Source: a phage. From it: a stretch of 64,000 nucleotides of DNA. The DNA lies in sequence record PX915678.1; one strand, given 5' to 3'. Shown one piece after another: positions 36,150-45,512 of the stretch. Numbering within the stretch: position 1 is the stretch's first letter; each line of letters opens with the position of its first letter. The notes under the pieces were generated by a model. The model was not told the origin of the DNA, did not search any database, and saw only the letters and a list, made by a program, of their open reading frames with translations. Position numbers and translations under genes: made by a program.

Positions 36150-36623
36150 TTATTTGAATGATTTGACGTACTGAATAGAGCCTTTGCTATTCACGAAAGC
36201 GATTTTACCATTTTTGTTATACATGGTAGCAGTACGCTGATAACCATAAGTTTGTTTACCAGATTGATAACCAACTAATGCGAAATTATCTTCACCCATT
36301 TTATTCTGCTTAGCGCGGATACGTTCATGACCGTGTGCCATAAGAACCTTAGCGTCGCCAGTTGCAATGGATCTACGAGTTTTTTCATCTTCAACTGTAT
36401 TAACAAAATCGTCAAATGAATCAAATTTAGCATGAGATTTATTATACAGTTTTCCATCTACTGCATAATTATATCCCTGTACATCCATCTCAACTTCTGT
36501 ACCATCATCCAATACAGCAGTGATTTTTTGACCTTTTTTAAATTTCAAAAGATCAGTAAAAGATTCAGCGATAATTTGAGAATTAATAGCTGCTTCAGTG
36601 ATAAATTCTTGATATGTTTTCAT
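36150..36623 (-). CDS. internal protein (IP) family member with capsid-targeting N-terminus
   Basis: 157-aa ORF beginning MKTYQEFITEAAINS (CTS-like signature ending in E); late promoter TATAAATA 35 nt upstream. Confidence 0.65.
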   Translation of the reverse strand: MKTYQEFITEAAINSQIIAESFTDLLKFKKGQKITAVLDDGTEVEMDVQGYNYAVDGKLYNKSHAKFDSFDDFVNTVEDEKTRRSIATGDAKVLMAHGHERIRAKQNKMGEDNFALVGYQSGKQTYGYQRTATMYNKNGKIAFVNSKGSIQYVKSFK

Positions 36624-36632
36624 GTGTTTCCT

Positions 36633-37049
36633 TTAAATGTAAATAGTTTTACCGTAGTATTTATACCAGTATGGCTTCATTAAAATTTTTTCATCGAGTC
36701 GTTGTTGACTCAACTTAATAGCTGATTTGCATGGATTATAATCATTTTTCCATTCTGCTGGAATATCGCTGATGTCAGGAACTTCAGTATCTTTTATACT
36801 AAACCCACGTTTTAAGCATTCCGTTATAATGTCTGATTGACGCTTTCGCAAAAATTCTAACTTATCGTAAAAGAACGTGACATGACCAGAACCTAAAATA
36901 AACTCGGAAGATATTTTAAAATCTTTAACCCGCTTACCATTTGCAACATGTTTACGAACTATACCAAAAACACGTGGCAATTCACGGTATTCTGCGATTA
37001 AATGTTGATCAGCAAGTTCAGATACTAAAGTCAAATTAATACGAGTCAT
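36633..37049 (-). CDS. denV: endonuclease V (pyrimidine-dimer DNA glycosylase)
   Basis: From ATG at 37049 (SD GGAGGG): [29 protein letters not shown]...[14 protein letters not shown], 138 aa, recognised as T4 DenV. Confidence 0.92.
36658..36665 (-). promoter_or_regulatory. late promoter (TATAAATA) for IP gene
   Basis: mRNA-sense GGTATAAATACTACGG upstream of ORF 36150-36623. Confidence 0.55.
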
Positions 37050-37054
37050 TTTAT

Positions 37055-37106
37055 CCCTCCAAGTAACTGTGAATAATACTATCACAATTCTAGGAGAAAG
37101 TAAACA
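37055..37106 (-). promoter_or_regulatory. early-type promoter upstream of denV
   Basis: mRNA-sense AAAGTTGTTTACTTTCTCCTAGAATTGTGATAGTATTATTCAC. Confidence 0.45.
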
Positions 37107-37109
37107 ACT

Positions 37110-37640
<531 letters not shown>

Positions 37641-41158: not shown

Positions 41159-41422
41159 TTATTTCATATTATTGAAATATTCTTCTGCGATTTCGTCGTT
41201 ATCGTGGTAAACTTTAGAAGACAGTTTAACATAACCTTCTGCTGTGAACATATTAATCACAACCTTTACAGTATACCACTGTCCGTCTTCATTACCCATT
41301 ACTGCGTAAGTTTCAAACATCGGATGGTCAGGACCGATAACTTTAATATCATTCACTGTACGACCGAAATCTTCTGAAACGCATTTCATAAAGAAGTTGA
41401 ACAGTTCGCCGTAATTATCCAT
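41159..41422 (-). CDS. hypothetical protein
   Basis: ORF from MDNYGELFNFFMK (SD GGAGAA) downstream of early promoter; track ORF extends spuriously upstream. Confidence 0.5.
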   Translation of the reverse strand: MDNYGELFNFFMKCVSEDFGRTVNDIKVIGPDHPMFETYAVMGNEDGQWYTVKVVINMFTAEGYVKLSSKVYHDNDEIAEEYFNNMK

Positions 41423-41460: not shown

Positions 41461-41496
41461 AGTTATATAGTACCATGGAAGAACAGGGATGTAAAT
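41461..41496 (-). promoter_or_regulatory. T4 early-type promoter
   Basis: mRNA-sense CACAAAACTATTTACATCCCTGTTCTTCCATGGTACTATATAACTATCAAC. Confidence 0.5.
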
Positions 41497-41631
41497 AGTT
41501 TTGTGAAAAAATTTTTAAAAATTTTTAGGGAATTCTAGGGCAGGGAGGGGCAATTAAAAGATAGGATAATATATTATAAAGGGTATAAACTAAATGATGC
41601 CTAGAGAGGTCCAGAAAGGCCTAGATACCAA

Positions 41632-41660
41632 AAAGCCCCAACCTTTCGGCTGGGGCTAAG
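41632..41660 (-). terminator. rho-independent terminator (copy 1 of duplicated element)
   Basis: mRNA-sense CUUAGCCCCAGCCGAAAGGUUGGGGCUUUUU directly after stop of ORF 41665-42138. Confidence 0.65.
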
Positions 41661-41664
41661 AATG

Positions 41665-42138
41665 TTATTTGATTTGTTTAGCAGACCAAATGCGGTCTTT
41701 AATAATTTTTTGGATGTCTTCAACATACTCAAGAGAGTGAGCATGTGGGTTATCTTTGAAACTATAAGCACGAGCTAGCTTTTGACCTTCGGTTTTGATT
41801 ACTAAAAGCTCTTTAAGGATAGCTTCATATTTAGCGATAATTCCTTTAACGATATTTTTTTCTTGTGCAGCTTTAGGATCTGCTTTAGGAGCAGGTTTAC
41901 CCGAAGCCTTTGCAAAAGCAGCTCCAGTAGCAACTAAACTTTTCCAGGCCATACTAACTGCATTTCCCGTAAATCCTTCTGCTTTCATGTCGCGAGCAAA
42001 TTGGAATCGTGATTCGTCAGAAGCATCTTTATAGGAATATTTACCCGCTGCAATGGCTGCTTTTGCGACAGCTTGAATTTCGGTGCTAGATGCTTCATTT
42101 AACACCGCTTCATTTAAAAATTGAGCATATGATTTCAT
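41665..42138 (-). CDS. internal protein (IP) family member with capsid-targeting N-terminus
   Basis: 157-aa ORF beginning MKSYAQFLNEAVLNE; Ala/Lys-rich; own late promoter and terminator. Confidence 0.6.
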   Translation of the reverse strand: MKSYAQFLNEAVLNEASSTEIQAVAKAAIAAGKYSYKDASDESRFQFARDMKAEGFTGNAVSMAWKSLVATGAAFAKASGKPAPKADPKAAQEKNIVKGIIAKYEAILKELLVIKTEGQKLARAYSFKDNPHAHSLEYVEDIQKIIKDRIWSAKQIK

Positions 42139-42167
42139 CTTATTTCCTGTTTTAATTCGTGGATTTA

Positions 42168-42175
42168 ATATACTA
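42168..42175 (-). promoter_or_regulatory. late promoter (TATAAATA) for IP cassette
   Basis: mRNA-sense AGTATAAATATAG about 30 nt upstream of ATG at 42138. Confidence 0.55.
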
Positions 42176-42185
42176 CTATATTTAT

Positions 42186-42216
42186 ACTAAAAAGCCCCAA
42201 CCTTTCGGTCGGGGCT
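42186..42216 (-). terminator. rho-independent terminator (copy 2 of duplicated element)
   Basis: mRNA-sense CUUAGCCCCGACCGAAAGGUUGGGGCUUUUU; ends the tRNA/stable-RNA transcription unit. Confidence 0.65.
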
Positions 42217-42523
42217 AAGCCTTGCGGCAACCTTGTCGGGGTTCCACCTGCTAAGGCAAGTGTTTGTACGAAACGCCGGGATTCGAACCCGGTTATTAAG
42301 CAGTTGACGCTACTCAATATTTTTTAAAAGGCCATATCTCGACCATATCCGAACGTTCCGTCAAAAACGCTACTCGGCTTACGGCAAAGATATTTCCTCG
42401 AATCGATAATTCGGTGCGCCGTTTCAGCTGTGATAGTAAAGAACCAGAACACAGTAAAACTGTGGGAGGAACTATACTCCAGGGAGCATCAATCCGACGA
42501 CTTACCGGTAGCGACCCGGTTTC
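42217..42523 (-). ncRNA. candidate stable structured RNA(s), possibly degenerate tRNA-like
   Basis: ~300 nt without ORF, GC-richer than surroundings, bounded by ORF/tRNA array and terminator; tRNA T-arm-like CCGGGTTCGAATCCCGG (42276-42292) plus several hairpins. Confidence 0.3.
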
Positions 42524-42874
42524 TTAATATTCTTTTAAAGCATCAATCTGTTCACGGCGTTTACGCCATAAATCAATTGCTTCATACGCAGATTCAGCAT
42601 TTCGAATTAGTCGGCATTTGTGTAAAGACTTGTGATTTTGATATTGTGTAGATAACGAAATTTTATCTAAAAGGTCTTTACGTTCAAAGTATTCGTAACC
42701 ATCTAAGCCAAATGAACGATTTTTGAGAAATTGCCAATGACCATATTCGTTTTCGACATAAACATAATCCGCGTGTTGATAAAGCAAATTAATTACACGT
42801 TCAGAAATAACAGTGTCATTGTGATTAAAATAGAATGTTAAATCATGAACTACTAAATAAACATTACCTTTCAT
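42524..42874 (-). CDS. hypothetical protein
   Basis: 116-aa ORF immediately 3' of tRNA-Arg. Confidence 0.5.
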   Translation of the reverse strand: MKGNVYLVVHDLTFYFNHNDTVISERVINLLYQHADYVYVENEYGHWQFLKNRSFGLDGYEYFERKDLLDKISLSTQYQNHKSLHKCRLIRNAESAYEAIDLWRKRREQIDALKEY

Positions 42875-44324: not shown

Positions 44325-44620
44325 TTGCTCACCATATTAATGTAAGTATATTTAATACATTCAAGATCCAAAGGATTCTTGAAAATATCATATTCAAGAG
44401 GACCTTTTTCTGTTTCAATAAAGAAATCAAAATTTACTGTATTAAATTTACGGTCTTCCTTTACTAATTTAACTTGAGAAGATGAACGGTCAATGTAAAC
44501 CTTTTCAACTTCAAAATATGTTAAAATACCATAATCATCAATCAAGGATTTAGCTGCTTCTTGATCATATTTATATCCATTTTCAATGGATGATACTTTC
44601 GCATAAAGAATCATTATCAA
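44309..44620 (-). CDS. hypothetical protein
   Basis: 103-aa ORF. Confidence 0.5.
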   Translation of the reverse strand: MIMILYAKVSSIENGYKYDQEAAKSLIDDYGILTYFEVEKVYIDRSSSQVKLVKEDRKFNTVNFDFFIETEKGPLEYDIFKNPLDLECIKYTYINMVSKCIFV

Positions 44621-45006
44621 CCTTCATCAACAATAGTGTGCGTATTGGCATTAACTATTTGCCACCAATCAAAGCGATTAGAACCATACATCGGTTTGTT
44701 TTCATTTTCTTTGATAATGTCACGGAGTTCATCTTCGGTAGCGGCTTTCGCTATTAAATCAGCATATCCACCACGAGGATAATAATTATCACCTGCAAAA
44801 AGTAAAAAGTTTGGTTTAATGTTATTGAACTCTTCAAGAGTAATAACTTTTCCTGACGGTTGAACAATCTCTACATATTTATATCCCAATTTTTGAGCAG
44901 CATCTACTGCTTCAAGCAAAGTATCATGAGCCCATCCAATTTGACAACCTGGCTTTTCAGATGGATTAGCCTGATAATCCGCATACACTTTATACATTCT
45001 ATTCAC
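44617..45006 (-). CDS. hypothetical protein
   Basis: 129-aa ORF. Confidence 0.5.
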   Translation of the reverse strand: MNRMYKVYADYQANPSEKPGCQIGWAHDTLLEAVDAAQKLGYKYVEIVQPSGKVITLEEFNNIKPNFLLFAGDNYYPRGGYADLIAKAATEDELRDIIKENENKPMYGSNRFDWWQIVNANTHTIVDEG

Positions 45007-45209: not shown

Positions 45210-45260
45210 GTAATAGTATCACAACTAAAACCCTATGTAAACAACTTTGTGAAATTATTT
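45210..45260 (-). promoter_or_regulatory. T4 early-type promoter
   Basis: mRNA-sense AAATAATTTCACAAAGTTGTTTACATAGGGTTTTAGTTGTGATACTATTACC. Confidence 0.6.
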
Positions 45261-45512
45261 TAAATCTTCTAATCGTTTCTTCATCTTAGAACCGTTCTTA
45301 GCGATTTCGCCTGCATCTGAGCATAATGCTAAAAGTGCTTTAACTTTAGTTTGGTCTCCTTTAAAAGATGAAGGATCGACTGCAGCAGCAAGTTCTTTAA
45401 TACGAGAGAAAAGACGCTCAGCTTCAGCTAAAGCCATTCCAAGCTTTACTTCCATACCGTGGGAAGATTCAGTGATAGTAGTTTTTGTAGCAAACTCTTT
45501 GAAAGTTTTCAT
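45255..45512 (-). CDS. internal protein, ipI-locus (capsid-targeting N-terminus)
   Basis: 85-aa ORF MKTFKEFATKTTITESSHG...; location adjacent to 57B as for T4 ipI. Confidence 0.6.
   Translation of the reverse strand: MKTFKEFATKTTITESSHGMEVKLGMALAEAERLFSRIKELAAAVDPSSFKGDQTKVKALLALCSDAGEIAKNGSKMKKRLEDLK

Follow-up and report, generated by a model that had tools for sequence, protein, structure and literature searches.

A terminator-bounded cassette between rnaC and e.8 of a Tequatrovirus encodes a candidate internal protein at a proposed third locus

The DNA that we analyzed, a 64,000-nucleotide stretch of a phage genome (sequence record PX915678.1; hereafter, the window), belongs to a Tequatrovirus and carries a small gene cassette between rnaC and e.8, at a locus that is 97 to 98% identical to complete Tequatrovirus genomes. 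The cassette and its neighbors lie on the minus strand, along which a terminator is followed by a late promoter, the ORF, and a second terminator. Its upstream neighbor, and the final gene of the tRNA/stable-RNA transcription unit, is the homologue of rnaC (species 1 RNA, 42267..42406), identical to T4 rnaC at 137 of 139 positions and in part tRNA-like by ARAGORN; it was identified through the alignment with T4 because Rfam has no model for rnaC (or for rnaD). The rnaC transcript is closed by an intrinsic terminator (42184..42219; stem 42216..42193, GAAA loop, TTTTT) that is also the upstream copy, copy B, of a direct repeat. A T4-type late promoter adjoins it, an exact TATAAATA at 42179..42186, whose first bases, TAT, are shared with the end of the repeat. 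Next come a Shine-Dalgarno sequence, AGGAAA (42143..42148), 4 nt upstream of the start codon, and an ORF of 157 amino acids with an ATG start (41665..42138), whose product we call IP157. An earlier note on this DNA had already singled out this ORF by its MKSYAQFLNEA start, which we confirm, the strand (minus) being a detail absent from that note. The terminator of the IP157 gene is the downstream copy of the repeat, copy A (41625..41660, stem 41657..41634). Beyond it, an early-type promoter-like site (41467..41495; TTTACA, 17 nt, and TACTAT with a TG), a consensus match only, would restart transcription into e.8 and would form the downstream edge of the transcriptional gap in which the cassette is held. 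The e.8 homologue itself (41159..41422) is identical to its T4 counterpart at 254 of 264 positions. Elsewhere in the tRNA region, there is a 116-aa ORF between rnaD and tRNA-Arg (42524-42874, minus strand), a homologue of T2_136/RB69ORF150c that is not in T4; the tRNA set of the window, compared with that of T4, includes Asn, Tyr, and Met, with no Ile and no segB.

The two copies of the repeat (41625-41660 and 42184-42219) are 36 nt long each and 92% identical (33/36), and the 28-nt core is present at two sites only in the whole 64 kb, where none would be expected (100 shuffles). On the minus strand, each copy comprises a 10-bp stem, a GAAA loop, and then a run of T, with folding energies of -20.8 kcal/mol for copy A (z -3.8 versus shuffled sequences) and -24.9 kcal/mol for copy B (z -5.0). 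Both copies were scored as terminator-like, so the bracketing of the cassette by near-identical terminator hairpins, originally read from the letters alone, is borne out. A search of both hairpins against Rfam gave no match. The copies differ by a swap of AG and GA in the 5' arm (41634-41657 versus 42193-42216), and both variants pair with the TT of the 3' arm through G-U. At one IMG/VR locus (L003), the AG and GA variants are found in the opposite copies, as an exchange between repeats would yield.

The putative late promoter lies 40 nt upstream of the IP157 ATG and, at the sequence level, is insulated by the terminator. Of what had been claimed about it, the motif TATAAATA is real, while the coordinates given (42168-42175) were wrong, 11 nt away from the actual position at 42179-42186. 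The motif is not enriched in this AT-rich window (13 found versus ca. 10 expected), and enrichment was dropped as an argument for a promoter. Its support comes instead from its position and from its conservation in orthologous loci, in which TATAAATA is kept in six out of eight and AATAAATA is found in the other two, with different surrounding bases. Judged by its promoter, the IP157 gene is predicted to be expressed late.

A search with the 821-nt region retrieved 676 phage records, essentially all of them Tequatrovirus and relatives, 455 of which cover at least 80% of it. By tblastn, IP157 is present in 512 phage records (470 at ≥80% coverage), with an identical protein in Escherichia phage HY01 and others, and a second protein, IP187, is present in 165; every IP157 record whose name was checked carries the annotation "hypothetical protein." The T4 interval from e.8 to rnaC has no gene and exactly one copy of the hairpin, in agreement with the earlier note, in which T4 is not known to have an internal-protein (IP) gene at this place. 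In the alignment, the T4 site joins the flank that copy B has toward rnaC to a single hairpin and then to the flank that copy A has toward e.8; the sites of T2 and T6 are likewise empty, with one hairpin. Occupancy states were assigned from 11 loci taken whole: T4 and T2 are empty; the window, AR1, and the BASEL phage Bas39 have IP157 only; FL12 and RB69 have IP187 only (187 aa, MKTYAEFLTEA...); and pSs-1, ime09, MLP2, and SH-1 have IP157 and IP187 in tandem. All the junctions that we read fall within a terminator hairpin with the pattern AAAAAGCCC...GGGC, and that of the IP187-only locus of RB69 is the hybrid expected from the "middle" and "right" hairpins. The suspected presence or absence of the cassette across T4-like genomes, bounded by the repeat, is therefore seen as four occupancy states with their junctions in the terminators. 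A synthetic empty-site query matched 726 records, from which a spread sample of 60 provided estimates of ca. 8 empty sites, ca. 25 with one insert of ca. 555 nt, and ca. 11 with a larger insert. The cassette is the majority state in Tequatrovirus, and T2, T4, and T6 are the exceptions.

Two records show further variation around this locus. In the RB69 record (L018, 2338-2900), the IP187 homologue is split into two overlapping ORFs, ORF148c and ORF149c, owing either to a frameshift that made it a pseudogene or to an error in the sequencing; the annotation of ime09 ties its own 187-aa ORF to RB69ORF149c. A 2.9-kb Logan contig (P0014) contains a chimera of 94 aa, made up of the N-terminal two-thirds of the ORF located at 44617-45006 in the window and the last 32 residues of IP157 (41665-41760), which indicates a natural deletion of ca. 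3 kb that took out most of IP157 together with the entire tRNA/rnaC region.

The N terminus of IP157 reads MKSYAQFLNEAVLNEA, and its codons 1 to 15 (42094..42138) make up a predicted leader, or capsid-targeting sequence, MKSYAQFLNE↓AVLNE↓A (arrows mark predicted cleavage). The corresponding leader of T4 IPII/IPIII is MKTYQEFIAE↓A, from which that of IP157 differs at 5 of 10 positions (S3, A5, Q6, L8, and N9). Amber-suppressor mutagenesis of IPIII, as summarized in PMC9026906, assigned targeting to residues 4 and 7 and processing to residues 8 and 10; according to the same summary, the prohead protease gp21 cuts after (L/I)-x-E, and foreign proteins are packaged when they carry just the ten N-terminal residues. 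In IP157, Y4, F7, L8, and E10 are all present and are followed by Ala. The protease motif LNE↓A at residues 8 to 10 has a second copy at residues 13 to 15, a consequence of a 15-nt tandem duplication (42094-42138, minus strand) in which TTAAATGAAGC is repeated (TTAAATGAAGCG GTG TTAAATGAAGCA), giving FLNEA-VLNEA. In shorter orthologues, the leader is single and 10 aa long, MKSYAEFLTE↓Q, and the orthologues L006 and L008 to L010 are devoid of the extra 4 to 5 leader residues. The strict motif MK[ST][YF]xxF[LIV]xE appears twice in the six-frame translation of the window and in 0 of 200 simulated sequences, and a leader of the form [YF]xxF[LV]xE persists in family members that have only 30 to 40% identity. 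When IP157 was compared by hhalign with T4 IPII, T4 IPIII, and IP187, the alignment was essentially confined to the leader, with probabilities of 8 to 11% against IPII/IPIII. The capsid-targeting signature first recognized from the letters holds up, in that the four residues defined by mutagenesis match those of IPII/IPIII and the leader is the part that hhalign aligns.

Two other leader-bearing ORFs were found in the window, both on the minus strand. One of them (36150-36623) also codes for 157 aa, starts with MKTYQEFITEA, and belongs to PHROG 3155, "internal virion protein." It is located downstream of denV (36633-37085), and the e gene (37110-37604) is separated from denV by only 24 nt, a gap that leaves nothing at the position of ipIII/ipII in T4; the placement of IP genes around e and denV thus differs from that of T4. 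The other (45255-45512) codes for 85 aa with a long IPI-type leader, MKTFKEFATKTTITE↓S, and belongs to PHROG 3499, "internal head protein"; it occupies the classical ipI position, with 57B downstream of it, and its mature part is unlike that of T4 IPI.

With dN/dS values of 0.04 to 0.11 against six orthologues, IP157 is a real gene under strong purifying selection, and diversifying selection gave no signal at the coarse level tested. The protein is 95 to 100% identical within Tequatrovirus. Change is unevenly distributed along it, with dN of 0.20 to 0.29 in the N-domain (residues 16 to 75) and of ca. 0.04 in the C-terminal part (residues 91 to 157), i.e., a difference of ca. 5- to 7-fold. The mature protein, with a predicted length of ca. 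142 to 147 aa, is basic (pI 9.5) and Ala/Lys-rich like IPII/IPIII, and the composition that had been remarked upon is now quantified as 19% Ala and 13.6% Lys. An AlphaFold2 model, built from a shallow alignment, is all-helical and of moderate confidence (mean pLDDT 73.5), with a disordered leader (residues 1 to 15), a small N-domain of helices, a Lys/Pro/Ala linker modeled with low confidence (residues ca. 76 to 87, KPAPKADPKAA), and a long antiparallel helical hairpin (residues 88 to 154). A Pfam search of IP157 returned nothing above noise, a sequence profile search of the PDB returned 0 matches, and Foldseek searches of the model against the PDB and BFVD returned matches to its own family only; in these same searches, the known inhibitors bore no likeness to IP157 in sequence or fold. 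A HMMER search, run exhaustively over 1.84 billion representatives, retrieved only 13 representatives of the family, and the full-length ones that we examined all start with a leader of the [YF]xxF[LV]xE type. IP157 (E = 4e-60) and IP187 both match PHROG 2280 strongly, a family with the label "unknown function." The two proteins are probably remote relatives, i.e., old paralogues, which we state with moderate confidence, as their kinship rests on the shared PHROG 2280 even though hhalign aligned the leader alone.

In other phages, Dhakavirus QL01 and similar ones among them, orthologues of IP157 with 71 to 82% identity immediately follow the rnaC terminator and a TATAAATA or AATAAATA. The downstream terminator in QL01 is a different one. 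Yersinia phage fHe-Yen9-01 (L011, 2422-3537) has two leader-bearing ORFs in tandem between its tRNA genes and e.6. The first (189 aa, MLQYNEFLKE...) is 24% identical to IP187 over the full length, and the second (178 aa, MLEYSEFLKE...) is a relative of IP157 with a different C-terminal domain, so that the order, IP187-like and then IP157-like, is the reverse of that in pSs-1. An insertion in the lineage of the window was considered and rejected, given the orthologues at the same site in Dhakavirus and in the Yersinia phage. Their presence there in other genera favors a deletion in the T-even phages: the locus is probably ancestral, and the simplest reading of the empty sites of T2, T4, and T6 is a deletion between the repeated terminators. 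The notion of a recombinationally shuffled cassette put forward in the earlier note is supported by the terminator-bounded polymorphism, with the adjustment that a gain here is less likely than a loss in the T-evens.

We propose, with a probability of roughly 60%, that IP157 is a T4-type internal protein encoded at a third IP locus, injected into the host and most likely directed against type IV restriction. The upstream terminator would shield the gene from the tRNA/rnaC transcript, and TATAAATA would confine its expression to late infection, when proheads are being built. Y4 and F7 of the leader would bind the scaffolding core, leading to the incorporation of IP157 into the prohead, where gp21 would cut off the leader after Glu10 and/or Glu15, at the duplicated L-N-E↓A. 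The genes for the protease (gp21) and the scaffolding core (gp22) through which the leader would act are core genes in Tequatrovirus, and, by colinearity with T4, the head-gene region should be located outside the window. The basic helical mature protein, of ca. 16 kDa, would remain with the packaged DNA and enter the host with it, and once in the new host it would most likely neutralize a modification-dependent (type IV) restriction enzyme outside the range of Ip1-3. As for the cassette, its gain and loss would take place by homologous recombination between the near-identical flanking terminator hairpins, and the empty site of T2, T4, and T6 would most likely be a product of deletion. For carrier phages, a search of the literature turned up one virion proteome, that of SH7, an LC-MS/MS analysis with 13 structural proteins plus Alt and no described internal protein, too shallow to weigh for or against packaging.

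The part of this proposal that concerns the repeat could be challenged on the grounds that GC-rich tetraloop terminators are common, that the IP187 cassette has a different hairpin, and that the Dhakavirus orthologues have a different downstream terminator; the repeat would then be unrelated to mobility, the GAAA-loop terminators having converged and the differences between phages deriving from separate events. This is very improbable. The 33/36 identity runs past the stem on either side (TTAG... and ...GTAT), and the sites of T4, T2, and T6 consist, to the base, of the sequence upstream of copy B, a single hairpin, and the sequence downstream of copy A. The IP187-only junction of RB69 is the matching hybrid of the middle and right hairpins, and the exchanged AG/GA stem variants of another phage are what recombination between the copies would produce. 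A different objection is that IP157 might be a late protein that is never packaged, with a leader that is a relic of recombination among the 5' ends of IP cassettes and has lost its targeting role. The leader is unlike that of T4 IPII/IPIII at half of its ten positions, the gene is outside the two classical IP loci, and it has never been annotated as an IP, in keeping with the "unknown function" of PHROG 2280. However, a relic would decay, and here the leader and its L-x-E↓ motif have been conserved while the bodies of the proteins fell to 30 to 40% identity. The four mutagenesis-defined residues are intact, the promoter is late-specific, and in T4 the 10-residue leader suffices to package foreign proteins, again as summarized in PMC9026906. 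We consider an unpackaged IP157 improbable; its leader suggests that it is probably packaged and processed.

What IP157 would do after injection is best judged from the characterized IPs. Ip1, Ip2, and Ip3 were shown in 2025 each to inhibit one distinct GmrSD type IV enzyme (PMC12373910), namely, the GmrSD of CT596 for Ip1/IPI* and those of ECOR21 and ECOR17 for Ip2 and Ip3, respectively, and the leader-bearing ORF Bas37_0260, located at ipI, codes for an inhibitor of McrBC (bioRxiv 10.1101/2025.11.20.689424). These inhibitors have the same kind of packaging leader as IP157, a similar size, and the same lifestyle as variable accessory cassettes in Tequatrovirus, although they resemble it neither in sequence nor in fold, and they are also unrelated to each other. 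Because all four characterized IPs inhibit type IV restriction, an inhibitor of type IV restriction is our best guess for IP157, to which we would give slightly less than an even chance, the caution being due to a sequence that is silent on the target and to a strong conservation that is atypical of an arms-race protein. IP157 could instead be packaged and processed for another role, either as a counter to another defense or in a structural or physical capacity, such as neutralizing the charge of the DNA or protecting its ends. The conservation just mentioned (95 to 100% within Tequatrovirus, dN/dS ca. 0.1) would fit such a role, as would the nearly invariant C-terminal helical hairpin (dN 0.04) next to an N-domain that changes ca. 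5 to 7 times faster, the basic character of the protein with its linker KPAPKADPKAA, and the lack of any likeness to IPI, IPII, and IPIII beyond the leader. Nevertheless, T2, T4, and T6 and ca. 18% of the sampled relatives do without IP157, which disfavors a core structural role; the four IPs with known targets all act on type IV restriction, and they are so dissimilar among themselves that the dissimilarity of IP157 says little. We regard a role other than anti-type IV as unlikely. More tentatively, and with some doubt, the two members of PHROG 2280, IP157 and IP187, can be seen as the products of a third, probably ancestral IP locus of the Tevenvirinae that inhibit defenses outside the range of Ip1-3, in which case the target might be a distinct clade of type IV/GmrSD enzymes or another kind of system.

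If the tentative reading of PHROG 2280 is correct, the model of two IP loci missed this one since T2, T4, and T6 have all lost it, and the locus would add to the host-range gap that separates most wild Tequatroviruses from the T-evens of the laboratory. The authors of the work on Ip1-3 and Bas37_0260 predict further enzyme variants as the targets of the remaining IP variants; this prediction and the earlier shuffling models cover two IP loci only, and a third locus adds two candidates. IP157 is found in ca. 470 sequenced phages and IP187 in ca. 165, including members of the BASEL collection, and among the carriers are HY01 and AR1, phages that have been proposed for biocontrol or used for typing. 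A re-annotation of PHROG 2280 would fix hundreds of genome records. In addition, the locus offers a clean example from nature of how terminators can mediate the gain and loss of a cassette.

More than 30 IP variants were reportedly listed by Comeau et al. in 2007, and it is possible that this ORF was already counted among them; the locus and the family look new. The literature describes two IP loci, with no IP genes elsewhere (PMC2839356, PMC12373910). Compared with T4 IPII/IPIII, IP157 has the same 10-residue leader pattern, MK(T/S)Y..F(I/L).E↓A, with its targeting and cleavage residues, and it is likewise a small, basic, Ala/Lys-rich protein, dispensable and polymorphic among close relatives. 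Also as in those proteins, its mature part is unrelated to that of other IPs, and conserved regulatory sequence flanks the cassette; a likeness restricted to the leader is a known pattern among IPs (PMC12373910). The differences are that the gene is located between rnaC and e.8, outside the ipI and ipII/ipIII loci, that its flanks are a GC-rich intrinsic terminator and a late promoter, and that a duplication has lengthened its leader to 15 residues, giving it two cleavage motifs. Furthermore, the IPs of the window at the two classical loci are in PHROGs named as internal virion or head proteins, whereas IP157 is in PHROG 2280. The location outside ipI and ipII/ipIII departs from a positional convention and not from a functional requirement.

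The shuffling of IP cassettes through conserved flanking regulatory sequence was proposed by Repoila et al. (1994, as cited in PMC2839356 and PMC12373910), and the idea was later generalized as PeSLs (Arbiol et al. 2010, PMC2839356; Comeau et al. 2014, PMC4122927). The elements published in association with IPs are early promoters and AT-rich stem-loops (Arbiol et al. 2010, PMC2839356). The IP157 unit resembles a PeSL in being a composite terminator/promoter element around a small accessory ORF, in bounding indels between close relatives, and in that homologous recombination between elements explains gain and loss, leaving the neighboring transcription units unharmed. However, the promoter of a PeSL is early and sigma-70-like, whereas the IP157 cassette has the late TATAAATA, and the stem-loop sequence is unrelated, PeSLs having been defined in the RB49/phi1, PST, and nt-1 groups. 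We rejected the classification of the unit as a PeSL, the class of promoter being different. Set beside these known systems, the cassette marks a proposed, overlooked third IP locus and is not a new kind of system.
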